NCBI GenBank assembly: GCA_017557195.1
Contig: JAFZAL010000007.1
Span: forward strand, 7,260-71,259
Direction of reading: 5' to 3'
Source: Thermoguttaceae bacterium
GTDB lineage: Bacteria > Planctomycetota > Planctomycetia > Pirellulales > Thermoguttaceae
Length of the DNA stretch: 64,000 bases
The notes below the pieces were generated by a model. That model was not told the DNA's origin. It made no database searches and saw only the letters and a list, made by a program, of their open reading frames with translations. Position numbers and translations under genes: made by a program. Positions 1,598 through 60,074 of this stretch are shown in pieces. How positions within the stretch are numbered: the stretch's first letter is position 1; every line of letters begins with the position of its first letter.

Positions 1598-1696
1598 TGG
1601 GTAGTGAGAGAGTGGTTAGTGGTAAGTGGTTAGTAGAAAGTGGTAAGTGAGATGAGCGCTTTGCGTCCTTACCACTTAGCGCTTAAAACTAACCAT
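1598..1696. repeat. 7-mer-arm hairpin element (GGTAAGT / ACTTACC arms)
   Basis: Left arm is ggtagtgagagagtggttagtggtaagtggttagtagaaagtggtaagtgag. Core is agcgctttgcgtcc (1655-1668). Right arm ttaccacttagcgcttaaaactaaccat is complementary to the left arm. Confidence 0.8.
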
Positions 1697-1706
1697 TGAA
1701 ACAAAC

Positions 1707-1851: not shown

Positions 1852-1927
1852 AGTGCATAGTGCGTAGTGCATAGTGCATAGGGAAAAGAACTACGCACTA
1901 AGCACTAGGTACTAGGCACTAAGCACT
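1852..1927. repeat. 7-mer-arm hairpin element (GTGCATA / TATGCAC arms, no conserved core)
   Basis: Left arm agtgcatagtgcgtagtgcatagtgcatag, loop ggaaaagaa, right arm ctacgcactaagcactaggtactaggcactaagcact (imperfect reverse complement). Confidence 0.8.
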
Positions 1928-1936
1928 CCCTAAAAC

Positions 1937-3214
1937 ATGTATTCACAAAATCGTAATCGCACTGTCGTTATCGGCGGCGGCTTGGCGGGACTTAGCGCGG
2001 CGTGGAATGCGGCGCAAGCCGGTCATGATGTCGTTGTGCTGGAACGGTCGCCGTATCTGGGCGGACGGTGCGGGTCGTTTTACGATTTGCCGTCTCTGCG
2101 TTGGCTGGACAACTGTCCGCACTTATTTTTGGACTGTTGTGACGGCGTGAGGGAGTTCTTTACTCAAACGGGGTTGATCGAGTTCTGGAAGCCGGAACGG
2201 GAATTCTACTTTTATCCGCCGGGCAAACCGGCAACGGCGCCGCGAACGTTTAAAGAATCAGACCGGTTACCGGGCATGCTGCGACTGGAACCCGCCTTGA
2301 GGAGTTTGAACTACCTGTCGTGGAAAGAGCGGTTGAGAATCGTCTTTGATATGCTGGCCATTGCGCGTCAAAAGACGTTTGACGGCTCGTTCGGTCAGTG
2401 GCTCGACAAGCGTAAAACGCCGACGTCCGTTCGGACGCTGTTCTATGAGCCGATTGTGATGAGCGCTCTTTCCTGCTCGCTCGACCGTCCATGTTACAAA
2501 ATGGTTCGGAAAGTTTTCGTCTGCTCTTTCTTTGAGGGACGAAACCGATGGAACTGCTCTCTGCCGACCATTCCGCTTCGGGAACTGTTCGACGTCAAAC
2601 TGGCGGCGGCGTTACAAGATCAGGGGGTGGAAATTCGCCGCGGCTGTACGGTCGAGGAACTGGAGCGAGGCAAAAACCGCATTCGCGCCGTAAGACTGTC
2701 AACCGGCGAACGGATTCTTGCCGAGAAATACGTCCTGGCGACGAACTTCTCAACGGCGCAAACGCTCTTTCCTCCGCTTGCTCCGTTAGCGGAATCGTAT
2801 CAGACGGAATCCATTTCCAGCGTTCATTTCTGGACGGATTCGCCGTTTCTTCCCACGCCGCACGGGGTCTTTCCGGAACGGACGATACAGTGGATTTTCT
2901 CCGGCGAGAAAGACGAGCTGGGATACTATCATTGCGGCGTCGTTTCGGGTACGAACAGCTGGCAGGAACGAAAGAACGGGTTCAAATCCCAGGTTCGTCA
3001 GGAGTTGGCGGAACTCAACCCGGAATCGAAAATCCTGAGATTGGAAACAACGCATTGGAAGGACGCCGTTTGCGTTCCGTCGGTTGAATGGACGAAGGCA
3101 AGACAGAGCTGGTTTGAACAAACGACGCTGCCGGAGAATCTTGAACTCGCCGGCGACTGGACGAATCTTAACTGGCCGTCGACGATGGAAGCGGCGATCG
3201 CAATTAGCAATTAG
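1937..3214 (+). CDS. FAD-dependent oxidoreductase of the amine-oxidase / phytoene-desaturase family (HpnE-like hydroxysqualene dehydroxylase candidate)
   Basis: N-terminal Rossmann dinucleotide motif VVIGGGLAGLSAAWNAAQAGHDVVVLE..LGGR. C-terminal LAGDWT....PSTMEAAI, typical of this family. 425 aa. The subfamily assignment is inference only. Confidence 0.75.
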   Translation: MYSQNRNRTVVIGGGLAGLSAAWNAAQAGHDVVVLERSPYLGGRCGSFYDLPSLRWLDNCPHLFLDCCDGVREFFTQTGLIEFWKPEREFYFYPPGKPATAPRTFKESDRLPGMLRLEPALRSLNYLSWKERLRIVFDMLAIARQKTFDGSFGQWLDKRKTPTSVRTLFYEPIVMSALSCSLDRPCYKMVRKVFVCSFFEGRNRWNCSLPTIPLRELFDVKLAAALQDQGVEIRRGCTVEELERGKNRIRAVRLSTGERILAEKYVLATNFSTAQTLFPPLAPLAESYQTESISSVHFWTDSPFLPTPHGVFPERTIQWIFSGEKDELGYYHCGVVSGTNSWQERKNGFKSQVRQELAELNPESKILRLETTHWKDAVCVPSVEWTKARQSWFEQTTLPENLELAGDWTNLNWPSTMEAAIAISN

Positions 3215-3243
3215 CAATTGTCAATTAGCAATTGACGCAAGAG
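3199..3243. repeat. half element: (CAATTAG)x5 arm plus core-like gacgcaagag
   Basis: Sequence is cgcaattagcaattagcaattgtcaattagcaattgacgcaagag. The TAG stop of the upstream CDS (3212-3214) lies inside the second unit. No right arm is seen. Confidence 0.7.
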
Positions 3244-3252
3244 TTGTTTATA

Positions 3253-3279
3253 TAAAAAAAGCGGGAGTTTTACTCCCGC
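3253..3279 (-). terminator. rho-independent terminator for the minus-strand PEP-CTERM gene (possibly bidirectional)
   Basis: Stem GCGGGAGT (3261-3268), loop ttt, stem ACTCCCGC (3272-3279). On the minus strand the hairpin is followed by a T-run, the complement of aaaaaaa at 3254-3260. It lies 30 nt past the stop of the 3311..6646 gene. Confidence 0.6.
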
Positions 3280-10619: not shown

Positions 10620-13004
10620 ATGAAAAAGAATGTCTTCTGGCGAATATTCAGCGCAGCCGCGTTAACGACTATTGTTTGGAGCGCGGCATGTCTGAACGTC
10701 TATGGATTTACGAACAACTCCAATTCCGGAGGAACTCTGCTTGACGTATTTCGCGGACGCGGCAGTTCGTCCAACCCTTCTCCGACAGTCAGCGCGCCAA
10801 CTCCGCCTAACGCCGGTTACGAATCTCCTGTGTTGCCAGCTCCGCAATTGACCAATGTCAATGGGTATGGACAGCCGCAGGGCGTTGTTGAGACGCCTCG
10901 GCAATTCCCCAGTTCACAATACGTTCCGCCAGCAGTCCCAGCGCCGCAGGAACCGGTTCAAAACAAGTGGTCGTTAAAAAGCTGGCTGTCCGGCGCTGCG
11001 CCTGTTCAGCCGCAGCCTCAATATGTTGAACCCGCGCCGCCTCTGACGCCGTCGTATAATCCACCCCATTCCCATGCGAGTCATCCGGTTATGCCCAGTC
11101 ATCCGGTTATGCCCAGCGGGCAGAAAACGCAATATCCTGTTGTTCCGCTGGATTCGGAGGATTTTCGACCTCAGGAAGGCGCGATCTATAACGAAAAAGG
11201 GGAAATGATTTACAACCCCGCAAGCGGGGAACCCATGCCGAATTTCGCCGAGGGCGAGACTCTGCAGGGAAACGTCGATTGGGGTGTAACAGGTAACGAG
11301 AGCATGCCAGACGCGTCAATAATTCCTCCTGCAGCAATTCCACCCGCAGCTATTCCTCCTGCAGCAATTCCTCCCGCTGCAATTCCTCCCGCTGCCAAAG
11401 CCGACGCCGTTCCGAATAACGAATCGGAATCCACCGCCAAGCGGATTATTATGGGACGATCGAGCGCAGGACGTTCTGCGACGCCTGTCAATCAGGAACG
11501 GGTTTACAATCAAACGCCGAGTTCTCCAAGTGGCTCGGTTTATCCAACGCCAGAACCGATTCCCGCTCAAATGCCGGCTAATCCCTACGCTCAGCAGCCG
11601 ACTGTTAGTTCTGGAAATCCTCCTGTTGGAACAGGGAAAGCGATTATCAACGGAAATTCGGGAGCCTCAGCATTTAGCAAAACGTATACGCCAGGTCCGG
11701 TTCGGACAGACGTTCCGGCGGAACCTGTTATGGATATGTCAGGTCCAGATTTGACAGAAGCCTTGCCGCAGGATTCTGCCGTATCGCCGGCGCCGGCTGC
11801 TTCACCGGTAATCGAGGAAATACATAACGATTCGCCGCTGGAAAAACTCTCAGAGAAAAACAACGAAACCCCGGTTTTAGAACCGGTTCCGGAATCCGTT
11901 ACAGAGATTGACATTCCTAAAGAGAAAACAGGGAATAGGGAACAGGGAGTAGGGAATAGCGATTCGCCGAAGACGAATTCAACTCCTCTTGCAACGCGCA
12001 AGTCGCAAATTTCAACTTCCCAAGCTCCATTGATAGTCGAAATCTCCGGTCCTGAAGAAGTCGAGTTTGGCAAGAACGAGATGTTTTCTTTGAGCGTAAT
12101 CAATACGACCGACGCCGTTCGCCGTGACATTGATTTAAGCGTTCATCCAGAAGGATTTGGCGACGATAAAACCGCCAGTTTGACGCTTGAAGAACTGCAG
12201 CCGGGCGAGAAGAAGTCCGTTTATATGAAGCTCAATGCGCGTCAGTACAATAATTTGTCGCTGACGGCTCAGGTTCGTGACGCGTTGGGATTTGAAGCGG
12301 TGAAATCAATCAGCGTCCGCGTGAAAGACGAGTCTGTGAAGATCTCGATTCTGCCTCCTCAGGCGGAGAGCGCGTTCGTCGGACAGCCGACGCAGTACCT
12401 GATTCGAATTGTCAACAAGGGGGCTAAAACCGTTACGCTCAACGCAGTCGCGTTTTTTGGAAACGGCATTGAACCGATTCGAGCGTCCGGCGCGCCCAAT
12501 TCGATTCAAAGCGGTCAGGTTGTCGTCGATACGCCGATTGAACTCAAACAGGGCGAGATGCGCGATTTGAAAATTGTCGCCGTTGCATTCCAGCCGGGCG
12601 TTCATAAAATCCTGGTTCAGCTGTTTGATTCCCGCGGCGCGACGTATGCCGCCAAGGAGTCTTGCGCTTATCGCCAGCGCGAGTTTGACAATAACGATTC
12701 TGAAATCGCGGAAAAAGACGCCCGAATTGAACTCACGCCGGGCAAATCCGAAATCGGCGTCTGGAAACCGGCGGGAGATTCAGGCAGTAGGCAAGAGACA
12801 GTAGGCATGAGTGAGAGTACGCAAGCGACCAACGGGAGCGAATTTCGGCAGACGCGCGGTAGCGCGGATGGGGAGCGGCGCCTCGCCGCCTCGCAACTCG
12901 CAACTCCTGACGCGCCGGCTCAGAACGCCCCTGACGCCGTCCCGCTGACTCAACCGGATCAGGGCCCGCAAGGCGATTTGATTATGCCGATGTTCGCACA
13001 GTAA
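10620..13004 (+). CDS. secreted proline-rich protein with two C-terminal Ig-like (CARDB/DUF11-like) modules
   Basis: Signal peptide MKKNVFWRIFSAAALTTIVWSAA. Pro-rich repeats (HPVMPS x2, AIPPA x5). Two beta-sandwich-like modules (PLIVEISGPEEVEFGKNEMFSLSVINT... and VKISILPPQAESAFVGQPTQYLIRIVNKG...). The last ~75 codons run through repeat-element sequence. Confidence 0.65.
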   Translation: MKKNVFWRIFSAAALTTIVWSAACLNVYGFTNNSNSGGTLLDVFRGRGSSSNPSPTVSAPTPPNAGYESPVLPAPQLTNVNGYGQPQGVVETPRQFPSSQYVPPAVPAPQEPVQNKWSLKSWLSGAAPVQPQPQYVEPAPPLTPSYNPPHSHASHPVMPSHPVMPSGQKTQYPVVPLDSEDFRPQEGAIYNEKGEMIYNPASGEPMPNFAEGETLQGNVDWGVTGNESMPDASIIPPAAIPPAAIPPAAIPPAAIPPAAKADAVPNNESESTAKRIIMGRSSAGRSATPVNQERVYNQTPSSPSGSVYPTPEPIPAQMPANPYAQQPTVSSGNPPVGTGKAIINGNSGASAFSKTYTPGPVRTDVPAEPVMDMSGPDLTEALPQDSAVSPAPAASPVIEEIHNDSPLEKLSEKNNETPVLEPVPESVTEIDIPKEKTGNREQGVGNSDSPKTNSTPLATRKSQISTSQAPLIVEISGPEEVEFGKNEMFSLSVINTTDAVRRDIDLSVHPEGFGDDKTASLTLEELQPGEKKSVYMKLNARQYNNLSLTAQVRDALGFEAVKSISVRVKDESVKISILPPQAESAFVGQPTQYLIRIVNKGAKTVTLNAVAFFGNGIEPIRASGAPNSIQSGQVVVDTPIELKQGEMRDLKIVAVAFQPGVHKILVQLFDSRGATYAAKESCAYRQREFDNNDSEIAEKDARIELTPGKSEIGVWKPAGDSGSRQETVGMSESTQATNGSEFRQTRGSADGERRLAASQLATPDAPAQNAPDAVPLTQPDQGPQGDLIMPMFAQ
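11319..11396 (+). repeat. in-frame 15-nt tandem repeat x5 (AIPPA pentapeptide)
   Basis: Units attcctcctgcagca, attccacccgcagct, attcctcctgcagca, attcctcccgctgca and attcctcccgctgcc, differing by synonymous changes. Confidence 0.9.
11928..12010. repeat. degenerate 7-mer-arm element embedded in frame in a CDS (AGGGAAT arm plus attcgcc..gaattc centre)
   Basis: Sequence is cagggaatagggaacagggagtagggaatagcgattcgccgaagacgaattcaactcctcttgcaacgcgcaagtcgcaa, translated as TGNREQGVGNSDSPKTNSTPLATRKSQ. It resembles the intergenic element at 26340-26428. Confidence 0.6.
12781..12907. repeat. 7-mer-arm element embedded in frame near a CDS 3' end (GCAGTAG left arm, exact core, GCAACTC right arm)
   Basis: Left arm caggcagtaggcaagagacagtaggcatgagtgagag. 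Core ACGCAAGCG at 12819-12827. Right arm ctcgccgcctcgcaactcgcaactcc. Both TAGs in the left arm fall out of frame. Confidence 0.7.
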
Positions 13005-13005
13005 T

Positions 13006-13085
13006 GAGTGCGTAGTGTTTAGTGCATAGTGCGTAGGACGCAAGCGATTCTCTCACTATGCACTAAGTACTATGCACTATGCACT
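13006..13085. repeat. 7-mer-arm hairpin element (GTGCATA / TATGCAC arms)
   Basis: Left arm gagtgcgtagtgtttagtgcatagtgcgtag. Core ACGCAAGCG at 13038-13046. Right arm actatgcactaagtactatgcactatgcact. Starts 2 nt after the TAA at 13002-13004. Confidence 0.85.
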
Positions 13086-13094
13086 TCCCCCATC

Positions 13095-14321
13095 ATGACT
13101 CAATTCCATTCAACAGTTCTTTCTAACGGTTTGACGGTTTTGGCGGAAACGATTCCGTATGCGTACAGCGTCAGCGTCTGCTTTTTTGTCAAGACGGGCA
13201 GTCGTGACGAAACGACGGCGGAATCGGGCGTGAGTCATTTTCTGGAACACATGATCTTCAAGGGGACGCAAAAACGGACGGCAGAGGAAGTCAACCGCCT
13301 TTTTGACGATATGGGCGCGTCGAACAATGCCTGTACGAGCGAGGACGCGACGATTTTCTATGCGTCTTTTCTCCCGGAATATCTGGAACCGGTTATAGAA
13401 CTGTGGTCAGACGTTCTGCGCCCGGCTTTGAGGGAGTCGGACTTCAATTCTGAACGTCAGGTCGTTCTGGAAGAGCTGAAAATGTATCAGGACGAGCCGC
13501 CGTACGATATGGACGAGCAGGCGCGCCGGGCCTTTTTCAACGGGCATCCGCTGGGAAATCCGATTATCGGGACGGTTGACTCGCTCAACGCCATGACGCC
13601 GGAAATGATGCGGGAATATTTGAATCGTCAGTACGCCCCGAACAACATCGTTCTTTGCGCGGCAGGGAAAGTCGACTTCGATAATTTGACGCGTTTGGCG
13701 GAGAAGTACTGCGGCTCCTGGACGCCCCGAGACGTCACAAGAAATTTGCAATCGTTTACGCCCGGACAACGGCTCAATCGAATTGCCGACTCGACGGCGG
13801 CTGAGGAGTATATAATCGACTGGTATCCGGGACCGAATCCGGTTGGCCGCGATTATTATGCGGCAAAAATGTTCGCGTCGCTTATCGGGGACGAGTCTGG
13901 AAGCCGGTTCTACTGGAAATTATGCGACGTCGGTCTGGCGGATTCCGCTCTTTTTGTGTATTCAGACTATACGGAAACCGGCGCGTTTAACGCCTCGTTT
14001 TCCTGCGCTCCGGAAGAGGAAAAAACGTGCATGGACATCGTTGCCGACGTCTATGACGACGTCCTGAATAAAGGGTTTTCGGAAAAGGAACTCGACCAGC
14101 GCCGCCGCCGGGAGATGGCAAGTCTGATTATGCGCGAGGAGCGCGTCCTGTCACGAGCGTTTACGATTTCCTCTGACTGGATTTGCCGAAATCAGTATTT
14201 TACGCTTGACGACGAAATCAACATACTCAAAAGCGTTACACTGGACGAAATCAACGACATGGCAAAACGCTTCCCGCTCCGTCCCGCCGTTCGCTTTGCG
14301 GTCGGACCGAACGAAGAGTAA
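13095..14321 (+). CDS. M16 (pitrilysin-family) zinc metallopeptidase
   Basis: Inverted zinc motif HFLEH followed by MIFKGT. Typical N-terminus MTQFHSTVLSNGLTVLAE. I prefer the ATG at 13095, because the ORF-track start at 13029 lies inside the hairpin repeat. Confidence 0.85.
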   Translation: MTQFHSTVLSNGLTVLAETIPYAYSVSVCFFVKTGSRDETTAESGVSHFLEHMIFKGTQKRTAEEVNRLFDDMGASNNACTSEDATIFYASFLPEYLEPVIELWSDVLRPALRESDFNSERQVVLEELKMYQDEPPYDMDEQARRAFFNGHPLGNPIIGTVDSLNAMTPEMMREYLNRQYAPNNIVLCAAGKVDFDNLTRLAEKYCGSWTPRDVTRNLQSFTPGQRLNRIADSTAAEEYIIDWYPGPNPVGRDYYAAKMFASLIGDESGSRFYWKLCDVGLADSALFVYSDYTETGAFNASFSCAPEEEKTCMDIVADVYDDVLNKGFSEKELDQRRRREMASLIMREERVLSRAFTISSDWICRNQYFTLDDEINILKSVTLDEINDMAKRFPLRPAVRFAVGPNEE

Positions 14322-17409: not shown

Positions 17410-17546
17410 GATTAGGCAATAGGCGCGAAGAGCATCCAGTTTCAGGGGGGCGGGTATTACCCGCCAAAAAAATCAACCTTTGATTTTCGCGGACAATGTC
17501 CGCTCCCCAGAAACCTACTGCCTACTGCCTCTTGCCTAATGCCTAT
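17410..17546. repeat. composite element between convergent genes: GCAGTAG-family arms enclosing two short GC hairpins
   Basis: Left arm gattaggcaataggcg. GC hairpins gggcgggtattacccgcc (17448-17465) and gcggacaatgtccgc (17489-17503). Right arm ctactgcctactgcctcttgcctaatgcctatc. Confidence 0.75.
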
Positions 17547-24125: not shown

Positions 24126-26342
24126 ATGAATCCGTATCAACAGTGGCTCGGTCTTTATAACTTTTCGGGCGTGAAGCCCAATTACTACGAATTGCTCGGC
24201 TTGCAGTTTGGCGAAAGCAACCCGTACGTCATTGAGCAAGCCGCCAACGAGATGGCGACTCGTCTTAACAGCGTCAATCCGGGGATGGACGTCGCTGTTT
24301 GGAATTCGATTATGGCGGAAATCCAAAACGCTCAGATGTGTCTTTGCAATCCGGCGTCCCGAATGGAATACGACAATTCCCTTCGCGGCGGAATGGGCGG
24401 ATTTGGCGGGGGTTATTCCGCTGGCGCTGCTTTTGGCGGCGGAAATATGGGTTATAGTCAACCGCAGATGGCGCAGCCGCCCATGTCGCCCGTATCCGGC
24501 GGATTTGGGGGCGGTTACTCTGCCGGGGCTGCGTTCGGAGGTTCGCCCGGTCCTCAAATAGCTGCGCCGCCGATCCCGTCTGCTCCCCCTGTCCCTTCAT
24601 CCCCGTCTGCTGCGACCGTTGCGCCTGTTCGTCCTGCAACTCCATCGGCTTCTCCCACAGCAACTCCCGTTGCAACAGCCGCCGTTGCTGCCGGCGCTGC
24701 AACAGCGGTTGCCGCAACAGCAGTTGCGTCTGCTGCCAAGGCAAGCGCGCCAACGCCGCCTCCGTCTCCAACGGGTGGAGCGAATTTGAATTTGGGTAAT
24801 TCCAAAAAGAAAAAAATCCATAAAAAGGGAGCTGCCGGGGCTGGCGCTCTGTATGGAATTTATACGGCTTTGGGGCTGGGAGGTTTAATTCTTTTGATTT
24901 GGCTTATCAGCAGCCTGGCAAACCAGTCAACGGAAGATTCAAAAGACAATCAGCCCAAAATTATCGTCGTTGACAATACTCCTGCCAAGGGGGTAAATCT
25001 GCCGAGGACGATCGAAAAGAAAGTTGACGAATCAGAAAAAGTCAAACCGGTAGTCGCGCCCAAGAGAAAGATCGTTTCCAGACGTACAAAAGACGGCGTC
25101 CCAATTCGTCATGTCGTAGACGATACAGACGCCGTTGACGACGTTGCCATCGGAGACGGCAGAATTATCGACGGCGAAGTTACAGACGACGCGCCGGACA
25201 TTCGGGAATTGGGCGTTTCAGACGACCGGGGCGGCGTTATTGACGAACGCTCAGACGATTTCCGCATTGGAACCAACCGGGTTGTTGTTGACGATAACGA
25301 CAACGTCGATTCCGTTGAAGAAGCAATTGAACATGCAACGGGAATTGACATCGCTCCAAACGAAGACGGCGAACCCGCTCCCAACTTCTCCGCTCGACAT
25401 GACGAAGGGGGAACCGTTGAGGTTATTGACGACCCGCGATTAGGAACCGGAGTTGAAGGAGCTATTCAGGTTACCCGCCGTCCGCGCACTTCCGTCTTTG
25501 ACGCTGACAGACCCGCTGTTGTCGAGAACGTTCGACCGGCAGTCGAGACTCCCGTTACCCCAGTCGCTCAACCGGGCGCAGCCGTTCCCAGTTCCGTTCC
25601 GGAAGACGTCAATTACGATAACGTCGCAGACGATTTGGTTATTGAAAAATCTGCTCCTAATGTTGAAACTCCTGCTGTTGAGAAAGAACCCGCCCCGGCG
25701 GTCGAACAGCCTCAACCCGCTGTAGAAGAACCGAAGGCGGAAGAACCTCAGCCTGTTGCAGAACCCGTTCAGCCCGCTGCTGATCAGCCGAAGACGGAAG
25801 AACCAGCTCCAGCAGCTGAACAGCCCAAGGAGGAACAGCCGAAGGCAGAAGAGCCTCAACCGGCGACGGAGCAGCCCAAGGCGGAAGAACCCAAACCGGC
25901 TAAACCCTCTAAATTTGACATTCCGAAAGAGTCTGAACTCATGACGGCGGAAGCCAAAATCAATGCTGACAACGCAGACGCGCTCAAGTCTGGCGATGCC
26001 GCTGGCAGAGTCGCGTTGGCTCAAAAGCTCATAGACGATTCCGCCTCGCAGTCGCCCGCCGATCATTACGCCGCTTTAACCAAAGCGCGCGATCTGGCAA
26101 CGGACGCACAAAACGTAGACGTCGCGATAAAGGCGATTGAACTCAAGGCGAAAGCGTTTAACAACGTTGATTCCTATAACGAAGGGGTTGATGTTCTCTT
26201 GTCCTGCAAGCCCAACGCCTGGCCGGAAAGTCAGAAAAAGGCTGTAGTTTCCGCCGCGGAGAAATGGCTTGGCGTTGCCAGGAAAAAGAACGATAACCGA
26301 ACGGCTAAAAAGCTGCAGGATATTATTGACGCCAATAAATAG
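24126..26342 (+). CDS. membrane-anchored protein with an N-terminal J-like domain lacking HPD, a Pro/Ala/Glu-rich linker and a helical C-terminal domain
   Basis: N-terminus NPYQQWLGL...NYYELLGLQFGESNPYVIEQAANEM is J-domain-like but has no HPD. GGFGGGYSAGAAFGG occurs twice. TM segment ALYGIYTALGLGGLILLIWLI. Repeats of the type PKAEEPQP. The TAG stop lies inside the first unit of the following repeat. Confidence 0.7.
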   Translation: MNPYQQWLGLYNFSGVKPNYYELLGLQFGESNPYVIEQAANEMATRLNSVNPGMDVAVWNSIMAEIQNAQMCLCNPASRMEYDNSLRGGMGGFGGGYSAGAAFGGGNMGYSQPQMAQPPMSPVSGGFGGGYSAGAAFGGSPGPQIAAPPIPSAPPVPSSPSAATVAPVRPATPSASPTATPVATAAVAAGAATAVAATAVASAAKASAPTPPPSPTGGANLNLGNSKKKKIHKKGAAGAGALYGIYTALGLGGLILLIWLISSLANQSTEDSKDNQPKIIVVDNTPAKGVNLPRTIEKKVDESEKVKPVVAPKRKIVSRRTKDGVPIRHVVDDTDAVDDVAIGDGRIIDGEVTDDAPDIRELGVSDDRGGVIDERSDDFRIGTNRVVVDDNDNVDSVEEAIEHATGIDIAPNEDGEPAPNFSARHDEGGTVEVIDDPRLGTGVEGAIQVTRRPRTSVFDADRPAVVENVRPAVETPVTPVAQPGAAVPSSVPEDVNYDNVADDLVIEKSAPNVETPAVEKEPAPAVEQPQPAVEEPKAEEPQPVAEPVQPAADQPKTEEPAPAAEQPKEEQPKAEEPQPATEQPKAEEPKPAKPSKFDIPKESELMTAEAKINADNADALKSGDAAGRVALAQKLIDDSASQSPADHYAALTKARDLATDAQNVDVAIKAIELKAKAFNNVDSYNEGVDVLLSCKPNAWPESQKKAVVSAAEKWLGVARKKNDNRTAKKLQDIIDANK

Positions 26343-26428
26343 GGAATTGGGAGTAGGGAATAGGGAATGGTAATTCGCCTTCGGCGAATTTAAAAACTAC
26401 TCCCTACTCCCTATTTCCTACTCCCTAA
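26340..26428. repeat. 7-mer-arm hairpin element (AGGGAAT / ATTCCCT arms, alternative central hairpin)
   Basis: Left arm tagggaattgggagtagggaatagggaat. Central hairpin aattcgcc-ttc-ggcgaatt (26372-26390). Right arm actactccctactccctatttcctactcccta. Confidence 0.8.
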
Positions 26429-26434
26429 TAAATA

Positions 26435-28621
26435 ATGAAGTCCGCCGGTTTTCTGTCGACGTTGGGCGTAGGATTATGCGTTGTCGCTTTTTCAGCGTTT
26501 TTCCTTGCCCCAATGTATCAGCCGATGTTCTCAAACCGGCTGACGTTTCTTTGGAGTTGTCTGTTGGCGTCAGACATTTTGAGCTTTAATTGGCTTTTTC
26601 TTCCAGAGGAATGGCGCGCCTCGGAGACGGTCAAGGCGTTTTTCGACAGCTTCAACACGTCGTTTCTTCCGATAAACCGCTGGTCTATTCTGCTCATTGT
26701 TACAATCGAAGCTCTCTGGATTTATTCGCTCGGATCGCTGATATTTCGCTTCTTGAAAAATCCGTTGGAAGAATCTCCGCTGCTGCGATTCTGCTTGACC
26801 TGTTTGACCGGCGCAGCGGCGCTGTCCGCGCTGACGGGTTTTCTCGGCTTGATCGGTTGTCTGCAAAGCTGGCTTTTCTGGACGCTGGCGGCAGGGACGA
26901 TATTGACGCTAGTATGGAAAATTAGGGATGCGGTTTTACTCAAATCGCCTCAGATTAGTTGCGAGTTGCGAGAAGATGGAATGTGTAATTCCGTTCGATT
27001 TTTCCGGGGGCTTACGCACCCCGGCTCGCCCTACTGCCTACTGCCTACTGCCTTAATCGCTTTCTTCTGTCTCCTCGCTGTTCTCCCCGCCATGACGCCG
27101 CCATTTGATTTTGACGTTCGGGAATACCATCTGGAATCGGTCAAGGAATTCTGGCTTTCTGGGCGAATAACTGCGCTGCCCAACAACGCTTACGCCAACA
27201 TGCCCCTGGGAGCGGAAAGCCTCGTTTTGGTTTCAATGGCGCTTTCCGGCGACTGGTTTTTAGGTGCGCTGGCAGGCAAGACGCTTTTAAGTCTGTCCGT
27301 ACCGCTGACAGCGCTGCTTCTTTTCGCTCTTGGCGAGAAATACCTTTCCAAACGCGCTGGACTGATCGCAGCGCTTATTTACGTTTCCGCGCCGTTAATC
27401 ATTCGCAACGCTCAGTTTGGAATGATTGACGACGTCTTGACGATGTACGCCTTGGCAACGGCGGCAGTCCTGTTAGAAATTGTCAATCAACGTTTAACAA
27501 CAGAAACTGATATATCCCCAACTCTCGCAACTCGCAACTCGCAACTCGCAACTTTATTGGGCGCGATGGCGGGAATGGCGTCGGCGATAAAATATCCGGG
27601 CGCGCTTTTTGTAGCCTTGCCGTGCTTTATCGTAACCTTCTGGAAGAGCAGCCGTCTGCGACTCCAGCTCCCTGTTGTAACGTTTCTTCTGACCGCTTTG
27701 CTTATCGGGGGCGTTTGGTATTTGAAGAACGCGATCCTGCTGGGGAACCCGGTTTATCCGCTGTGTTCCAGCCTGTTTGGAAACGAATTTCCCGTTGGCT
27801 TTTCAGCTGAATCGTACGCTCGATGGCAAACCGTCCACGCGCCTCATGGCTGGGCTTGGTCAGCAATATACAAGCCGATTGTCCTTTTCTTCTATTCTTC
27901 CGACGTTGCCAGCCCGCTGTTTCTGCCCGTTTTGGCGTGCTGTATATTGTTTTGGAAACGACTGCCGGATTATGCGCGCTGGTCGCTGATTTACAGCAGT
28001 CTTTTTCTGGTCGGGTGGCATGTAACAACTCACAGAATTGAACGATTCCTGTTGCCCGTCGTTCCGTTTATCGCCTTGGCTGGCGGCGCGGTTTTTGACG
28101 TCATTCTTTCCAACGTTTCCGTCTGGATGGGACGAGTTCTCAAAGGCGTTTTGGCTCTCGGCGCAGCGTATTCCCTCCTGATTTTAGCGTATCCGTTTCT
28201 CGGAGCGTTCGGAACGTTCGATACAATCTCCGAGATGCGGTCGTCTCCCCTGAGACTGTGCGAGGGATTGACGCAGCTTGTTACACTGAGATCCGAAGAA
28301 CTGCTCAAAATGAAGGATTCCGGCGAACGCGTTTTGCTCATCGGCGACGCCGCGGTTTTCGACTGGCCCGTTCCCATTGACTATTCCGTCTGCTTTAATT
28401 CCGACGACTTTATAGATTCTGTTACAAGCAAACTTCAGGGAGACAATCCGCCCAAATTGATCGTTGTCAATTTAAGCGAGATAAACCGATACCAGACTAC
28501 AGAATACGGGTACAGCTCAAAAGTTAAAGCGGCCCTGGAATTGTTGGATAATCCAGACCGCTTTACTCCAATTTATCGTTCAGAATGGATGACGACGACT
28601 GTTTACGAATTGAAACAATAG
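26435..28621 (+). CDS. polytopic membrane protein, GT-C-fold glycosyltransferase-like (ArnT/PMT family-like), carrying in-frame repeat insertions
   Basis: 728 aa with many hydrophobic helices. A DE-type loop motif FDFDVREYH follows a TM helix, as in ArnT/PMT enzymes. Repeat sequence is read through in frame at 26957-27052 and 27521-27553. It may be a fusion of two ancestral ORFs. Confidence 0.6.
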   Translation: MKSAGFLSTLGVGLCVVAFSAFFLAPMYQPMFSNRLTFLWSCLLASDILSFNWLFLPEEWRASETVKAFFDSFNTSFLPINRWSILLIVTIEALWIYSLGSLIFRFLKNPLEESPLLRFCLTCLTGAAALSALTGFLGLIGCLQSWLFWTLAAGTILTLVWKIRDAVLLKSPQISCELREDGMCNSVRFFRGLTHPGSPYCLLPTALIAFFCLLAVLPAMTPPFDFDVREYHLESVKEFWLSGRITALPNNAYANMPLGAESLVLVSMALSGDWFLGALAGKTLLSLSVPLTALLLFALGEKYLSKRAGLIAALIYVSAPLIIRNAQFGMIDDVLTMYALATAAVLLEIVNQRLTTETDISPTLATRNSQLATLLGAMAGMASAIKYPGALFVALPCFIVTFWKSSRLRLQLPVVTFLLTALLIGGVWYLKNAILLGNPVYPLCSSLFGNEFPVGFSAESYARWQTVHAPHGWAWSAIYKPIVLFFYSSDVASPLFLPVLACCILFWKRLPDYARWSLIYSSLFLVGWHVTTHRIERFLLPVVPFIALAGGAVFDVILSNVSVWMGRVLKGVLALGAAYSLLILAYPFLGAFGTFDTISEMRSSPLRLCEGLTQLVTLRSEELLKMKDSGERVLLIGDAAVFDWPVPIDYSVCFNSDDFIDSVTSKLQGDNPPKLIVVNLSEINRYQTTEYGYSSKVKAALELLDNPDRFTPIYRSEWMTTTVYELKQ
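26957..27052. repeat. chimeric 7-mer-arm element embedded in frame in a CDS
   Basis: Left arm agttgcgagttgcgag. GC hairpin ccgggg-gcttacgca-ccccgg (27004-27024). Right arm cctactgcctactgcctactgcc. Translated as [31 protein letters not shown]. Confidence 0.7.
27521..27553. repeat. (GCAACTC)x4 arm embedded in frame in a CDS
   Basis: Sequence actctcgcaactcgcaactcgcaactcgcaact, translated as TLATRNSQLATL. Confidence 0.75.
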
Positions 28622-29216: not shown

Positions 29217-29346
29217 TAAACACGAAAAACACGAAACAAACGAAACTTACGAAAAATTTAAAAAATAATTCTTTCGTGTTTTTCCCGTCCCTTTTCGTAT
29301 ATTTCGTGTTTAAAACTACTGCCTACTGCCTATTGCCTACTGCCTT
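29217..29346. repeat. compound element: ACACGAA / TTCGTGT arms followed by a (CTACTGC)x3 arm
   Basis: Left arm aaacacgaaaaacacgaaacaaacgaaacttacgaaaaa. Right arm ctttcgtgtttttcccgtcccttttcgtatatttcgtgtt. Then ctactgcctactgcctattgcctactgcc, which abuts the purT stop codon (29345-29347). Confidence 0.75.
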
Positions 29347-30532
29347 ATTTCACGTTTCCCAGTTCGAGGTCTTCGCTCATCTTGAAAACGCGGGCGAGGG
29401 CGGCGTCAACGGTTTCGTCTCGAGCCAGCAGAACGCCGACGCGGCGATGTCCGTGGACTTCGCCTTTGCCGAAAATACGCATCGTCGTGTTGGGAGCTTC
29501 GAGGACTTTATCCAGATTGGAGAACGTAACGTCGTCGCTGTCTCCGCGGGCGACAATTGCCTTGGACGCCGACGGGCCGTGGAATGCAATGTTGGGAATG
29601 GGAAGCCCGAGAATGGCGCGGGCGTGGAGCGCGAATTCCGACAGGTCTTGAGAAATCATCGTAACCATGCCTGTGTCGTGGGGTCTGGGGGAAACTTCGC
29701 TGAAAATGACCTTGTCGCCCTTGATGAACATTTCGACGCCGAAAATACCGCGACCGCCCAGCGCGCCGGTGATCTTGCCGGCAATTTCCTGAGCTTTCGC
29801 CTTCGCTTCGTCTGACATGGGCTGCGGCTGCCAGGATTCCTGGTAGTCGCCGTCTACCTGATGATGCCCAATCGGTTCGAGGAACGACGTTCCGCCCGCG
29901 TGACGAACGGTCAGAAGGGTAATTTCGTAATCGAAATCGATAAACCCTTCGACGATGACTTTTCCCGCGCCGGCGCGTCCGCCTTCCTGAGCAATTTGCC
30001 AGCATTTGTCGACGTCGTCCGCCGATTTGCAAACGCTCTGACCGTGTCCGGACGAGGACATAATCGGTTTGATAACGCACGGCGTTCCGATGGCTTCTAC
30101 CGCCTGTTTGAATTCTTCGTAATTGGCGGCGAAACGATACGGGGACGTCGGCAAACCGAGTTCCTCAGCCGCCAGACGGCGAATCCCTTCCCGGTTCATG
30201 GTCAGGAACGCGGCGTTGGCAGTCGGGATAACCGTATACCCTTCTTTTTCCAGTTCAACGAGCGTCGGCGTAGCAATCGCTTCGACTTCCGGAACGATGT
30301 AGTCGGGCTTTTCCTTTTCGATGACTTCGCGCAGCTGTTTGCCGTCGAGCATGTTGATGAAGTAGCTCCGGTGCGCCACCTGCATGCCCGGCGCATTGTC
30401 GTAGCGGTCAACAGCGACAACTTCGACGCCCAAGCGCATCATTTCAATTACAACTTCTTTGCCAAGTTCGCCTGAACCGAGCATCAAAACCTTAACAGCC
30501 GACGGTCTGAGAGCCGTTCCCAATGTAGTCAT
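29345..30532 (-). CDS. purT: formate-dependent phosphoribosylglycinamide formyltransferase (GAR transformylase 2)
   Basis: 395 aa. N-terminus [48 protein letters not shown] plus an ATP-grasp body ([23 protein letters not shown]) are characteristic of PurT. Confidence 0.93.
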
Positions 30533-30654: not shown

Positions 30655-30800
<146 letters not shown>

Positions 30801-33356: not shown

Positions 33357-33473
33357 CCCACGCCTTTAGGCGTGGGATAACAAAAGATATAAATAGTGGT
33401 AAGTGGTAAGTGGTAAGTGGTAAGGATGCAAGCGCTGCCCCTACTAACCACTAACAACTAACAACTTACCACT
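33357..33473. repeat. GC hairpin plus 7-mer-arm hairpin element (GGTAAGT / ACTTACC arms) between convergent genes
   Basis: GC hairpin cccacgcc-ttta-ggcgtggg (33357-33376). Left arm agtggtaagtggtaagtggtaagtggtaag (33395-33424). Core gatgcaagcgc. Right arm ctactaaccactaacaactaacaacttaccact. Confidence 0.85.
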
Positions 33474-33480
33474 CGCAATA

Positions 33481-35036: not shown

Positions 35037-35115
35037 AGTTGCGAGTAACGAGTAACGAGTTGCGAGAAACGCAAAGCGCCTCATAAAATATCTCGCAACT
35101 CGCAACTCGCAACTC
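35037..35115. repeat. 7-mer-arm hairpin element (GAGTTGC / GCAACTC arms)
   Basis: Left arm agttgcgagtaacgagtaacgagttgcgag. Core acgcaaagcg (35069-35078). Right arm ctcgcaactcgcaactcgcaactc. Confidence 0.85.
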
Positions 35116-35124
35116 ACTACTCTA

Positions 35125-39321: not shown

Positions 39322-39412
39322 GAGTAGTGGTAAGTAGTTAGTGGTAAGTGGTTAGTATGATGAACGCTTGACGTCCTTTATATTAACCACTAAATACTTA
39401 CTACTTACCACT
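39322..39412. repeat. 7-mer-arm hairpin element (GGTAAGT / ACTTACC arms)
   Basis: Left arm gagtagtggtaagtagttagtggtaagtggttagt. Core gaacgcttgacgtcc. Right arm ttaaccactaaatacttactacttaccact. Confidence 0.8.
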
Positions 39413-39418
39413 AAAAAA

Positions 39419-40289: not shown

Positions 40290-40632
40290 GCTGTCTCCTG
40301 CCGCTGGAAAAATCTCACGCGGAGACGCGGAGGCGCGGAGGATGTTCGAGAAGTTTTAAAAATTTCTTTGCGATCTTTGCGGCTAAAAAATTCTTTTGCG
40401 GCAGGGGACTGCCGCCATCCAGGGAAGCGTTTTCGGCTGCGTCGGAAGTTTCTTTGTGTTCTTTGTGTTCTTTGTGATTAAAAAATTTCTTTGGCGGACG
40501 AAGACGTCCGCGAACCAGCGGGACGAGCGGGCTTTCCGCGTTCAATGATTTTTGGAGGCTTCCGCCGCAAGCTCTCCCCTCAAGACGAGCGCTTTGCGTA
40601 ATTACGAATTCCGCATTACGAATTACGCATTC
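40290..40632. repeat. repeat-dense intergenic tract (several short tandem repeats, a GC hairpin, a core and an ATTACGC arm)
   Basis: Contains cgcggag x3 (about 40317-40340), recurring tttctttgcg / ttcttttgcgg / tttctttggcgg, and tctttgtgt x3 (period 9, about 40451-40477). Also hairpin gcggacg-aaga-cgtccgc (40494-40511), core cgctttgcgt (40590-40599) and arm aattacgaattccgcattacgaattacgcatt. Confidence 0.7.
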
Positions 40633-45291: not shown

Positions 45292-45292
45292 T

Positions 45293-45379
45293 GAGTTGCG
45301 AGTTGCGAGTAACGAGTTGCGAGAAAACGCAAGCGTCCTAGCAACTCCTCTCGCAACTCGCAACTCGCCTCTCGCAACT
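45293..45379. repeat. 7-mer-arm hairpin element (GAGTTGC / GCAACTC arms)
   Basis: Left arm gagttgcgagttgcgagtaacgagttgcgag. Core ACGCAAGCG at 45327-45335. Right arm tagcaactcctctcgcaactcgcaactcgcctctcgcaact. Starts 2 nt after the scpA TGA. Confidence 0.88.
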
Positions 45380-45480: not shown

Positions 45481-46170
45481 ATGGGTCTGTTTGATTTCTG
45501 GCGAAAAAAGGACGCACAGCCGGCAGCGACAGCTGACGGACAGTCGAAATCCGCTTCTTCAGCGTCGGATAAGGGCAAAGCGTCGAAACCGGCGAAGAAG
45601 ACCGCGTCTAAAAAATCGAAGAAAGCCGATCCCGGTCCAGACCCGCTGCAGCTAGCGGTTGACAAAATTGCCACTCGTCCGCAAGGAGAGTACGTCTTAT
45701 ACGATCAGGCGGCTAACCTGTTCCCGCATCGGATTTTAGAACTCGGAATCGACGATGGAGAGCGCATTTCGACCCTGCTTCAGTTTGGAACGCTGGTCGT
45801 TGATCCGGCGGAACTGCTCTATGTCGGCTTGGACTGGTTTGAGGACAGAACGGAGCAGCAACGTCCTGGATTGACGCTCAGCCAGGCGGCAAAACTGTTT
45901 GCCAAATTGGGCGTAAAAGCGAAATTGCAGCCGGGCGACCCACTGACGTCTTTTTTACCGATTGCCAATTCTCTTACGGCGAAAAAGGTGGACTGGGTTA
46001 TGATTTCCAGCGAAATTCGCCCGAAGGTTATGCGTCAGCTTTGGCCTCTGTTCCCGCGAATTCTGAAGCCGGAAACGAGATTCTTTTTGGAAAAAAACGG
46101 CGAATACAAGCTCATCGCGCCGGAAGAAGTTGAACGCATCGCCAAAAAGGCGGAAGATCTGAACAGGTAG
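45481..46170 (+). CDS. hypothetical protein with a Lys/Ser/Ala-rich N-terminus
   Basis: 229-aa ORF. Basic low-complexity N-terminus (KGKASKPAKKTASKKSKKA). The globular remainder has a weak Rossmann/methyltransferase-like ILELGIDDGE segment. The TAG stop lies inside the next repeat. Confidence 0.5.
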   Translation: MGLFDFWRKKDAQPAATADGQSKSASSASDKGKASKPAKKTASKKSKKADPGPDPLQLAVDKIATRPQGEYVLYDQAANLFPHRILELGIDDGERISTLLQFGTLVVDPAELLYVGLDWFEDRTEQQRPGLTLSQAAKLFAKLGVKAKLQPGDPLTSFLPIANSLTAKKVDWVMISSEIRPKVMRQLWPLFPRILKPETRFFLEKNGEYKLIAPEEVERIAKKAEDLNR

Positions 46171-46378
46171 TAGGCAGTAGGCAGTAGAGAATGCGTAATT
46201 AGTAATGCATAATTATGCAAGCTCTGCTCGTAATTCTTCTCGCAACTCGCAACTATTCTCCAGCCTGCCCATTCATTTTTAAAACTTTGCGAACTTTGCG
46301 TGAGACTTTTTTTAATTCCGAATTCCGCATTAACAATTACGCATTACGAATTACAAATTACGCATTACGCATATAACC
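46167..46378. repeat. compound element with four unit families (GCAGTAG, GCGTAAT, GCAACTC, ATTACGC/ATTCCGC)
   Basis: Runs gtagtaggcagtaggcagtag, then aatgcgtaattagtaatgcataatt, core-like atgcaagctctgc, then ctcgcaactcgcaact. Continues with ctttgcgaactttgcg and ends aattccgaattccgcattaacaattacgcattacgaattacaaattacgcattacgc. Confidence 0.75.
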
Positions 46379-48210: not shown

Positions 48211-48343
48211 AAACTTCTCTCGCTTTTCGACGTTAGATTTTCTATCATCTTGCCTTCAATTGACGTCAATAAAAATAAAAAATCTATAAATATACGTCAA
48301 ATTCGTCTGGACAAAAACTGGAATTTTGGGTAAAATACCGTCC

Positions 48344-49240
48344 ATGTCAGAAGTAAAGTCGAGTATACACGTATCGGTTATGCCCGATGAGGTGTTGGAA
48401 TATATCAATCCTCAGCCGGGTCAGGTCGTCGTTGACGGCACGCTGGGCGGGGCGGGGCACGCGAAAATGATCGCGTCCCGGCTGGTTCCCGGCGGCTGTC
48501 TGATTGGCTTGGATCGAGACGCTGCGCCATTACAGCTGGCGGAAGAAACGCTCAAGGGACTGCCGGTTATTCTGGCGCAGTCCAACTTTTGCGATCTGCC
48601 TGAAACGCTGGAAGAAATCGATGGAATCGATAAAGTCGACGCGATTTTGCTTGACCTGGGACTGTCGAGCGACCAGTTGGCAGACCGTTCCCGCGGGTTC
48701 AGCTTTAATTCCGACGGTCCGCTGGACTTGCGCTTTGACGTCGATCATGGCGAGCCTGCGTGGAAACTGCTCAACCGGCTGTCCCAGCAGACGCTGGCAG
48801 ACCTGATTTATCAGTACGGCGAGGAACGTTTCAGCCGTCGAATCGCTCAAAAGATTGTCGAAACCAGACGTTCCAATCCGATTAAAACCGCCGCTCAACT
48901 GGCGGAACTGGTTCGTTCCTGCGTTCCGGTCGAACGCAACAGAAAAAACGCCATTGATCCCGCAACGCGAACGTTTCAGGCGCTTCGCATTGCCGTCAAT
49001 GATGAATTGAAGTCGTTGGAAATCGCGCTCAAACGGTTTCCAGACGTCCTTAAACCGGGGGGAATCCTGGCGATTATCAGCTTTCATTCCCTGGAAGACC
49101 GACGCGTTAAAGAGGCGTTTCGCAATGACGATCGCTACGAAGTTTTAACGCCCAAAGCCTTGACAGCGTCCCCGGAAGAAATTGAAGTCAATCCGCGCAG
49201 CCGATCCGCAAAACTGCGAGTCGCAAGAAGAAATGCGTAA
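48344..49240 (+). CDS. rsmH: 16S rRNA (cytosine1402-N4)-methyltransferase
   Basis: Motifs HVSVMPDEVLEYINPQPGQVVVDGTLGGAGHA, DLGLSSDQL, ALRIAVNDEL, ISFHSLEDRRVK and ARSAKLRVARR are all characteristic of RsmH/MraW. I prefer the ATG at 48344 over the upstream TTG. Confidence 0.93.
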   Translation: MSEVKSSIHVSVMPDEVLEYINPQPGQVVVDGTLGGAGHAKMIASRLVPGGCLIGLDRDAAPLQLAEETLKGLPVILAQSNFCDLPETLEEIDGIDKVDAILLDLGLSSDQLADRSRGFSFNSDGPLDLRFDVDHGEPAWKLLNRLSQQTLADLIYQYGEERFSRRIAQKIVETRRSNPIKTAAQLAELVRSCVPVERNRKNAIDPATRTFQALRIAVNDELKSLEIALKRFPDVLKPGGILAIISFHSLEDRRVKEAFRNDDRYEVLTPKALTASPEEIEVNPRSRSAKLRVARRNA

Positions 49241-49385
49241 TTCGTAATGCGTAATTCGTAATTACGCTTCGCGTTCATCGTAGTTTTATTGTGACGCTTG
49301 CGTCAATTCCGCATTCAAATTCCGCATTACAAATTTTTGAGGCGCTTTGCGTCAATTACGCATTACGCATTAAACATTACGAATT
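49233..49385. repeat. dimeric 7-mer-arm element (GCGTAAT / ATTACGC and ATTCCGC arms, two cores)
   Basis: Left arm atgcgtaattcgtaatgcgtaattcgtaatt contains the rsmH TAA (49238-49240). Cores CGCTTGCGT (49295-49303) and cgctttgcgt (49343-49352). Arms caattccgcattcaaattccgcattac and aattacgcattacgcattaaacattacgaatt. Confidence 0.85.
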
Positions 49386-49393
49386 AAAGTACC

Positions 49394-54885: not shown

Positions 54886-54977
54886 GTGAGAAGTGCGTAG
54901 TGCATAGTGCATAGTGCATAGTTCATAGTGAGGGGAGCGCTTGCGTCCTAAATACTATGCACTAAGTACTAACTACT
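54886..54977. repeat. 7-mer-arm hairpin element (GTGCATA / TATGCAC arms)
   Basis: Left arm gtgagaagtgcgtagtgcatagtgcatagtgcatagttcatagtg. Core CGCTTGCGT at 54938-54946. Right arm actatgcactaagtactaactact. Confidence 0.85.
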
Positions 54978-55012
54978 ATTTTGCGTATTTCGTGTTAAAA
55001 TAACTTTTTATC

Positions 55013-56084: not shown

Positions 56085-56300
56085 ATCTTTTTAAACACGA
56101 AAAACACGAAGCGCATAGTGCATAGTGCATAGTGCATAGTGCATAGTGCATAGTGCATAGTGCATAGTGCATAGTGCATAGTGCATAGTGCATAGTGTAT
56201 AGTGTATAGTGCATAGTGCATAGTGCATAGGACGCAAGCGCTCATCTCACTAAGCGCTAACCACTTACCACTAACCACTTACCACTATTTCGTGTTAAAA
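56085..56300. repeat. chimeric element with a 17-unit GTGCATA microsatellite as left arm, exact core, and ACTTACC-family right arm
   Basis: Starts aaacacgaaaaacacgaa. About 17 units of (GTGCATA) span 56111-56230, two of them GTGTATA. Core ACGCAAGCG at 56232-56240. Right arm ctcactaagcgctaaccacttaccactaaccacttaccact. Ends tatttcgtgttaaaa. Confidence 0.9.
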
Positions 56301-56316
56301 AAACTCACTTACTGCC

Positions 56317-57253: not shown

Positions 57254-57301
57254 CCGTCTGAACAGTTTCCATGAGATTGTTCAGACGGCTTTTCTGTTGT
57301 T
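57254..57301 (+). terminator. rho-independent terminator after the PfkB kinase gene
   Basis: Stem ccgtctgaaca (57254-57264), 13-nt loop, stem tgttcagacgg (57278-57288), then cttttctgttgtt. Confidence 0.7.
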
Positions 57302-59996: not shown

Positions 59997-60040
59997 AAAA
60001 AACAACAGGGAATCGACGCAAATCGATTCCCTGTTGTTTT
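59997..60040. terminator. bidirectional rho-independent terminator between convergent ftsH and the Cys-rich gene
   Basis: Perfect 16-bp stem aacaacagggaatcga (60001-60016) / tcgattccctgttgtt (60023-60038) with loop cgcaaa. Flanked by an A-run on the left and a T-run on the right. Confidence 0.75.
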
Positions 60041-60074
60041 ACTAATTCTTAGAACTGTTTTGCATTATTTTAGC

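Follow-up and report, generated by a model that had tools for sequence, protein, structure and literature searches.

Short tandemly repeated repetitive (STRR) heptanucleotide sequences were reportedly described in cyanobacteria by Mazel et al. in 1990, and to our knowledge no mechanism has been established for these repeats in the decades since. The family treated here was found in a window (the whole stretch of DNA analysed, 64,000 nt) from a Thermoguttaceae bacterium (Planctomycetota), covering positions 7,260-71,259 of contig JAFZAL010000007.1 in assembly GCA_017557195.1. It resembles the STRR sequences in its tandem 7-nt units, its mainly intergenic location and its many unit types per genome. 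Furthermore, two Nostocales loci (L081, 2139-2222; L082, 11245-11325) carry a G-rich array, a spacer and a complementary C-rich array as the window family does, and this shared layout links the family to the cyanobacterial repeats. In contrast to the STRR sequences, however, the host is a planctomycete and not a (heterocystous) cyanobacterium, the units CCCCAGT, TTGGTCA and CAACAGT are absent among the 27 unit types counted across the window and related loci, and the window family has type-specific conserved cores as well as in-frame copies within ORFs.

A second precedent is the TAACTGA heptamer, a direct repeat of Beggiatoaceae, Cyanobacteria and Bacteroidetes (MacGregor 2015, PMC4679880). 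Forward TAACTGA repeats carry stops in three frames and so can share no more than a few nt with a gene end, repeats in the reverse orientation can be translated and occur within ORFs, and the stop content was read as a constraint on repeat distribution (PMC4679880); both the frame argument for heptamer repeats and the distribution constraint are thus already published. The same division into a forward orientation that closes all frames and a translatable reverse holds for the TAG- and TAA-bearing types described here, although not for the GAGTTGC type. TAACTGA repeats differ in being direct repeats of a single unit that lie mostly just upstream of start codons, whereas the window family consists of inverted pairs of many unit types around a core, mostly starting at stop codons, and TAACTGA itself is absent among the 27 types.

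Two further groups of palindromes are comparable. Rickettsia palindromic elements (RPEs) are non-repetitive palindromes of 100-150 bp that are tolerated in frame in protein genes. The window family likewise includes in-frame palindromic repeats that add a peptide segment, but there is no sequence relationship and only stop-free or stop-mutated copies lie within ORFs. The arms of REP sequences are not tandem repeats and have a single conserved 5' GTAG, whereas the arms of the window family are tandem heptamers; REPs have an associated RAYT (Y1 transposase) gene. REP/BIME and REPIN sequences resemble the family in being short, abundant extragenic palindromes or hairpins at gene ends, with mosaic or chimeric forms, and the possible roles of REP/BIME sequences include mRNA stabilisation and interference with translation termination near the stop codon (both points in part from PMC3116915). 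Literature searched on the present units, on heptamer repeats in Planctomycetes and on STRR hairpins yielded no description of the window family.

The element at 13006-13085 and its family in the window

The window is ordinary chromosome of a ruminant-gut Thermoguttaceae planctomycete carrying housekeeping genes, and no transposase was found among its genes or in the ~20-kb related loci. The gene at 14467-17409 encodes a 980-aa protein of this gut planctomycete with an F5/8 type C domain and a hydrazine-synthase-alpha middle domain (PF18582). The proteins of 49394-52696, 52775-54877 and 60060-60731 contain long low-complexity repeats, acidic or rich in proline (DEEY, EEPA, and the 27-nt CGCAAGCCGGAGCCGGAG), that are unrelated to the heptamer family.

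The element at 13006-13085 begins 1 nt past the TAA of gene 10620..13004 and occupies the entire gap between that stop codon and the ATG of the M16 peptidase gene at 13095 (Table 1). Written in units, its left arm reads GAGTGCG TAGTGTT TAGTGCA TAGTGCG TAG and its right arm CACTATG CACTAAG TACTATG CACTATG CACT. TAG triplets at 13013, 13020, 13027 and 13034 cover all three + frames in the 5' arm (13006-13038), and the reverse complement of 13054-13085 has TAG in all three - frames; the outward readings keep one TAA each (13064 on +, 13021 on -). The two arms form a predicted hairpin of -43 kcal/mol (z = -6.6), with a value of -37 kcal/mol on the - strand. This element is a single member of a multi-type family of small heptamer-based palindromes that is both abundant and dispersed.

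Arrays were detected with TRF and a custom period-7 scan, which together gave 22 elements or half-elements comprising 40 heptamer arms in the window, or ~1 per 3 kb. All follow a shared plan of a G-rich heptamer array, a type-specific core of 15-26 nt and a C-rich heptamer array, so ordered that the G-rich strand reads toward the centre on both strands: G equalled or exceeded C in 19 of 19 left arms of the window and C exceeded G in 21 of 21 right arms, and this polarity was strict even in chimeric copies unable to pair. Arm units are C-poor and show an N-A-G-N4 pattern; the AAT-type units (AATGCGG, AATTCGT) are without AG. The commonest unit in the window, GAGTTGC/CTCGCAA (10 of the 40 arms), had been omitted from the unit survey of the first-pass annotation, although the units that it did list were correct. 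A G-quadruplex reading of the arms was set aside because G-runs occur in the TAGGGAA type only.

The cores contain a small palindrome. Arms of the TAGTGCA and AAGTGGT types are paired with the core GGACGCAA(A)GCGCTCATCTCAC and TAGGGAA arms with AATTCGCC-TTCG-GGCGAATT, and CGCAA(A)GCG occurs 16 times in the window, 12 of them as a core flanked by arms and pointing one way or the other; no rule relating core orientation to gene direction or transcription emerged among the window copies. Elements are found in gaps flanked by convergent, co-directional or divergent genes, the divergent promoter-region copies being those at 30656-30800, 1852-1927 and 40586-40631. Arrays facing a gene end begin no more than a few nt from its stop codon (median ~1 nt), while the distance to start codons has a median of ~30 nt, and no target-site rule was found that accounts for the tight abutment to stop codons. 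MITEs combine terminal inverted repeats with a target-site duplication; inverted arms are present here, and no direct repeat was seen by eye at the flanks of the copies inspected.

Other small repeats accompany some copies. A second repeat, AAACACGAA(AAACACGAA) ... TTTCGTGTT(AAAA), forms an outer inverted repeat (56085-56112 with 56287-56305) around 56113-56287 and is present at two other intergenic sites (29218-29256 with 29275-29312; 54988-55000). In addition, a hairpin, GGCGGGTATTACCCGCC, was seen at several intergenic sites beside or inside heptamer elements (17447-17470 and 54110-54127; ~15828-15845 in locus L007).

Table 1. Coordinates of the element at 13006-13085, of the other family members in the window and of the elements at the M16 site in related loci.
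Feature	Position	Strand	Remark
Upstream gene stop TAA and in-frame TGA (13005-13007)	13002..13007	+	794-aa gene 10620..13004, called in public contigs
5' arm, 4.5 units of TAGTGCR heptamer, G-rich, G-C = +10	13006..13038	+	
Loop, 15 nt, CGCAAGCGATTCTCT	13039..13053	+	within family core motif GGACGCAAGCGATTCTCTCAC, which overlaps arm ends
3' arm, 4.5 units of CACTATG, C-rich	13054..13085	+	
M16-family peptidase gene, downstream	13095..14321	+	ATG 9 nt past right arm
E1, AAGTGGT/TTAGTGG arms, core reversed	1598..1697	.	between gene end and tRNA-Arg
E2, TAGTGCA arms, without CGCAAGCG core	1852..1927	.	divergent/5'-UTR position upstream of 1937..3214
E3, half element, GCAATTA array and GACGCAAGAG core remnant	3200..3246	+	gives TAG stop (3212-3214) to gene 1937..3214
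E4, in-frame copy in ORF 10620..13004	11927..12010	+	peptide GNREQGVGNS...LATRKSQ; sole in-frame TAG position is CAG
E4b, degenerate in-frame copy in ORF 10620..13004	12785..12911	+	TAGGCAG-type arm, TACGCAAGCGACC core, CTCGCAA arm
E6, between convergent genes	17411..17545	.	arms 1 and 0 nt from two stop codons; other small hairpins between arms
E7, TAGGGAA/CTACTCC arms, core AATTCGCC-TTCG-GGCGAATT	26338..26427	.	first TAG (26340-26342) is stop of 24126..26342
E8, chimeric in-frame copy in ORF 26435..28621	26957..27053	+	
E9, in-frame CTCGCAA array in ORF 26435..28621	27524..27553	+	peptide LATRNSQLAT
E10, solo CTACTGC array	29316..29345	-	abuts stop of - strand gene 29345..30532
E11, chimeric, divergent intergenic	30656..30800	.	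AATGCGG arm, core, (CTATTCC)5(CTACTGC)6
E12, AAGTGGT/ACTAACC arms	33393..33474	.	between convergent genes
E13, GAGTTGC/CTCGCAA type	35037..35122	.	arm after - strand gene end blocks one frame only
E14, AGTGGTA type, core reversed	39326..39415	.	
E15, half element, core and AATTACG array	40586..40631	.	
E16, GAGTTGC/CTCGCAA type, hairpin -50.7 kcal/mol	45293..45379	.	1 frame blocked on +, 0 on -
E17/E18, mosaic: TAGGCAG and AATGCGT arrays, core, CTCGCAA, ATTACGC array	46165..46377	.	TAG 46168-46170 is stop of 45481..46170
E19, composite, AATGCGT/ATTACGC type	49232..49386	.	TAA 49238-49240 is stop of RsmH-like gene 48326..49240
E20, complete GAGTTGC/CTCGCAA element, in frame in ORF 52775..54877	54132..54220	+	peptide KLREASNEWRENASVTQNPLATRNSQLATR
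E21, TAGTGCA type, core reversed	54892..54981	.	
E22, chimeric, 17 units GCATAGT, core, ACCACTT/ACCACTA units	56113..56287	.	inside outer inverted repeat AAACACGAA...TTTCGTGTT
M16 site, window	13006-13085		TAGTGCR arms
M16 site, L007	9915-9995		GCAATTA/ATTACGC
M16 site, L008	9866-10000		GGGAATA ... CTCGCAA
M16 site, L009	9581-9660		TAGGCAG
M16 site, L032	9905-10000		TAGGGAA

Stop codons in the arms

The first-pass annotation had taken the arms for symmetric three-frame stop cassettes, and its premises are partly sound. A period of 7 is coprime to 3, so that 21 nt suffice for a unit with a stop to close every frame; each of the six unit types that it listed does carry a stop, and five of their complements are stop-free as claimed, but CTAATTG, the complement of CAATTAG, has TAA. 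The chimeric copy placed near 56085-56300 was recovered at 56113-56287, and the repeat-peptide ORFs (CTMHYAL; PIPYSLF/LLPTAYC) are indeed read-throughs of the stop-free orientation. The stops said to lie just before the stem-loop were instead found inside the stem.

When the 40 arms were read inward, three frames were blocked in 20, two in 10, one in 4 and none in 6, while in the outward reading three frames were blocked in 3 and none in 22; among intergenic arms, all three frames were closed in 19 of 32 inward as opposed to 3 of 32 outward. The 5'/3' asymmetry in stop content is therefore real, but the statement that the stop-bearing orientation is the 5' arm on both strands, while true at 13006-13085, does not hold as a rule, given that only half of the arms close all frames and 6 of the 40 close none. 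Right arms often carry TAA variants (e.g., CACTAAG, ACTAACC), (G/A)TAG in TAG-bearing arms recurs in every unit and not once per element, and arms with stops are nearly confined to DNA outside ORFs or to the non-coding strand. The GAGTTGC/CTCGCAA unit contains a stop in neither orientation.

Whether such counts exceed expectation was judged against a column-permutation null, in which the seven unit columns were permuted per arm so that composition, periodicity and variant pattern were kept. Inward all-frame arms numbered 20 against 15.5 ± 2.7 under the null (P = 0.07), and outward all-frame arms numbered 3 against 6.5 ± 2.1; the inward excess is thus modest and non-significant, and is accompanied by a deficit in the reverse reading. 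By unit type, stops were present in 19 of 27 in the G-rich orientation (14.2 expected) and in 8 in the C-rich orientation (7.0 expected). The data come from one 64-kb window and ~100 kb of related loci, and different arms of a given type do not count as independent. These counts do not sustain the claim that stop-bearing heptamers are over-represented relative to composition-matched ones. At positions outside stops the excess of G over C was no weaker (288 G, 105 C), and most of the inward/outward asymmetry follows from the fact that the arms are C-poor and stop codons contain no C. Nor were stop-bearing arms favoured at gene ends: all frames were blocked in 8 of 16 arms following the end of a protein gene versus 11 of 16 arms that no ribosome can enter, these being directed at gene starts or divergent promoters.

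The pattern of mismatches within arrays also differed from that expected of a conserved stop codon. Stop-triplet positions showed a lower mismatch rate (11.6%) than the rest of the unit (19.7%), but the whole of this difference came from A and G. Mismatch rates within TAG arrays were 18% at T, 6% at A and 5% at G, with 7-26% at the other four positions. Variants of TAG were GAG (15), AAG (15) and CAG (6) as against TAA (5) and TGA (1), so that most destroy the stop. In GAGTTGC arrays aligned in the same register, the first and last positions were the most variable and the third the most conserved, with 11% at the second-position A. The conserved unit is therefore best described as N-A-G-N4 and not as a stop.

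Arrays nevertheless shape gene ends. Four genes (1937..3214, 24126..26342, 45481..46170 and 48326..49240) end on a stop codon supplied by the first array units, and any ORF running into an array with stops is capped there, which is a passive effect. Element copies also lie in frame inside four ORFs, including 10620..13004 (two), 26435..28621 (two) and 52775..54877 (one complete), where they are stop-free or stop-mutated and add peptide segments such as LATRNSQLATR, GNREQGVGNS and SRQETVG/SRQEAVG. ORF 10620..13004 is open in five species; its C-terminus is conserved downstream of the element-derived segments, which themselves differ by species, and its one in-frame TAG position is CAG or GAG.

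Distribution and turnover

Period-7 arrays were present in four close relatives, the closest genomes being Thermoguttaceae MAGs from goat and rumen samples. Loci of ~20 kb from other Planctomycetota, two further Thermoguttaceae MAGs among them, contained none, and the family is therefore not phylum-wide. A wider scan with (CTCGCAA)3 gave matches in at least 120 metagenome stretches, with 80 loci listed (L087-L166) from many samples; among the matches listed, the GAGTTGC type was present in 80 metagenome contigs of 31-73% GC, many with the arrangement (GAGTTGC)n-loop-(GCAACTC)n. The G-then-C order was followed by 16 array pairs versus 2 in related loci and by 22 versus 2 in unrelated metagenome contigs among the matches listed. 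Because many metagenome contigs have the same order with stop-free units, the polarity is independent of stops.

Individual loci illustrate the range of forms. Hairpins with the G-rich arm first include L100 247-325, L123 865-951 and L109 6791-6864 from metagenomes, while, as rare exceptions, the C-rich arm comes first in L007 12558-12669 and L008 12559-12670 (both CTAG-based, AGCTCCT ... AGCTAGA) and in L088 11519-11585 (AAGTCCC ... ACTTGGG). L144 1-520 is a giant nested palindrome in which arrays of GAGTTGC followed by TAGGAAG-like units (~250 nt) have their mirror image in CTATTCC followed by CTCGCAA arrays (~270 nt), an arrangement that suggests growth or insertion at the centre. Period-7 arrays, with one TAGTAG-type inverted pair, were also seen in Patescibacteria/Parcubacteria loci (L044 7483-7562; several in L069).

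The orthologous site 5' of the M16 peptidase carries five different element types in five species (Table 1). The adjoining gene retains 72-79% identity at third codon positions, from which it follows that replacement of the element is faster than point substitution; the same identity led us to reject saturated divergence as the cause of the differing elements. The L032 copy at this site matches the window element at 26338-26427 in both arms and core, and from such sequence comparison replacement here appears to involve whole units. At another site the TAGGCAG type is kept in four species with a changed copy number. A reading of the arrays as hypermutable microsatellites was discarded on the basis of identical arrays at elements E1-E5 in five or six independent assemblies of one strain.

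Folding, competing explanations and significance

Copies with matched arms had folding energies of -31 to -57 kcal/mol (z = -6.6 to -8.8) on both strands, while weak folding (z = -0.5 to -3) characterises the chimeric copies, which make up approximately half of the total, so that the hairpin is not essential for persistence. Energies on the + and - strands differed in no consistent direction, and strand preference was dropped as a clue to RNA function. Like Rho-independent terminators, the elements can form a stable hairpin downstream of genes, but intrinsic terminators are marked by a GC-rich stem with a loop of 3-8 nt and a U-tract right after the stem, whereas no U-tracts or T tails were found on the elements, and their loops are 15-26 nt long. 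The terminator scan called no full heptamer hairpin in the window, and its lone match at the present locus was a minimal 5-bp stem (12995-13012) overlapping the start of the 5' arm. An intrinsic-terminator reading was accordingly rejected in view of the missing T-tails, the long loops and the presence of canonical terminators elsewhere in the window. Strong canonical terminators were located in intergenic DNA at 59999-60040, 57254-57288, 61395-61417 and 3261-3279, some of them bidirectional with A- and T-tracts; most intergenic regions with such terminators are without a heptamer element, and 3261-3279 lies beside the half-element at 3200-3246. Searches of the window against Rfam, at gathering and E ≤ 1 thresholds, returned only tRNA and sub-threshold miRNA-hairpin noise.

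We consider it probable that the element belongs to a dispersed palindrome family whose stops are a by-product of unit length and composition and are not selected, the elements themselves being selfish or structural repeats. C-poor N-A-G-N4 units, stop codons without C and a period of 7 would together suffice for many arms to close three frames inward, and the complements of such arms would mostly leave frames open. The confinement of stop-bearing copies to non-coding DNA, and the persistence in frame of stop-free or stop-mutated ones, would then be passive. Elements presumably behave as selfish or structural repeats that spread as whole units (arms with the matching core), are reshaped by slippage and arm-to-arm correction, and come to take up the gap from a stop codon to the start codon that follows. 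The strong RNA or DNA hairpins of matched copies may in addition stabilise or process transcripts.

An RNA role could also be the primary one, with the elements acting as functional hairpins at gene 3' ends (terminators without a U-tract, RNase III sites or 3'-end stabilisers like E. coli REP) and the arms being an easy way to a long stem. The stability of matched copies on both strands, the fact that elements begin at stop codons, and the retention of some element at the same intergenic site in five of five species despite sequence turnover are consistent with this proposal, yet in the chimeric copies, about half of the total, folding exceeds that of shuffled sequences little or not at all, cores are oriented randomly relative to transcription, copies also lie in divergent regions and inside ORFs, and neither U-tracts nor Rfam matches were found. 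We therefore regard it as unlikely.

It is similarly improbable, in our estimation, that the family constitutes an undescribed class of polar heptamer palindromes, marked by whole-unit spread, fast replacement, in-frame insertion and occurrence in contigs of 31-73% GC, in which a dedicated protein (a mobilising enzyme or a ring-shaped RNA/ssDNA binder) recognises the arrays, so that this recognition, and neither base pairing nor stops, would account for polarity and AG periodicity. NAG-N4 triplets are bound by HutP and GAG/UAG repeats by TRAP, while a GTAG lying 5' of a hairpin is recognised by REP-associated Y1 transposases. In the corresponding account of the arrays as recognition platforms, the N-A-G-N4 on the core-ward strand would be bound by an oligomeric RNA/ssDNA binder or a mobilising enzyme, with stops incidental to AG. 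The arrays do hold at least three NAG triplets 4 nt apart, as in HutP-like operators, although this is a pattern match only. In TAG arrays A and G are 3- to 4-fold better conserved than T and most N4 positions, and GAGTTGC arrays have a broadly similar profile in which G is the most conserved and A less so (11%). Polarity that is strict even in non-pairing chimeras argues for a strand-specific feature and not for simple base pairing, and the type-specific cores with their small palindrome also favour a recognition platform. However, the window offers no candidate protein among its housekeeping genes, the AAT-type units are without AG, and the conservation profile could stem from descent of arrays from a common unit and not from current binding, all of which makes a platform of this kind distinctly unlikely.

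Least tenable is selection of the arms as symmetric three-frame stop cassettes that, with the stem-loop, insulate from translational read-through and transcription on either side, which we judge very improbable: the inward bias of intergenic arms, array starts a few nt from stop codons, the four genes ending at an array stop and tandem stops (TAA-TGA in frame at 13002-13007; TGA-TGA at 45289-45294) are in its favour, but composition yields most of the asymmetry, gene ends are not enriched, TAG arrays do not conserve their T, the most frequent type has no stop on either strand (with 35092-35122, which follows a gene end, and 45350-45379 blocking 0-1 frames inward), whole elements are translated inside ORFs, copies occupy divergent promoter regions, and the elements are without a U-tract while canonical terminators occur elsewhere. 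Composition, gene-end position, the T of TAG and the in-frame copies thus speak against the combined translational and transcriptional insulator that had been suggested. Weak filtering in favour of arms with stops close to genes may nonetheless operate, and arm composition could in principle itself have been shaped by such a filter.

The stop-cassette idea amounts to no new principle, and the cassettes do not appear to be selected. The arrays matter for annotation in that they create spurious repeat-peptide ORFs, set where some genes end, and add LATRNSQ, GNREQGVG and SRQEAVG segments to real proteins. Beyond annotation, the family merits genome-wide study for its strict polarity, its AG periodicity, its whole-unit turnover at fixed sites and its spread well beyond the cyanobacteria.
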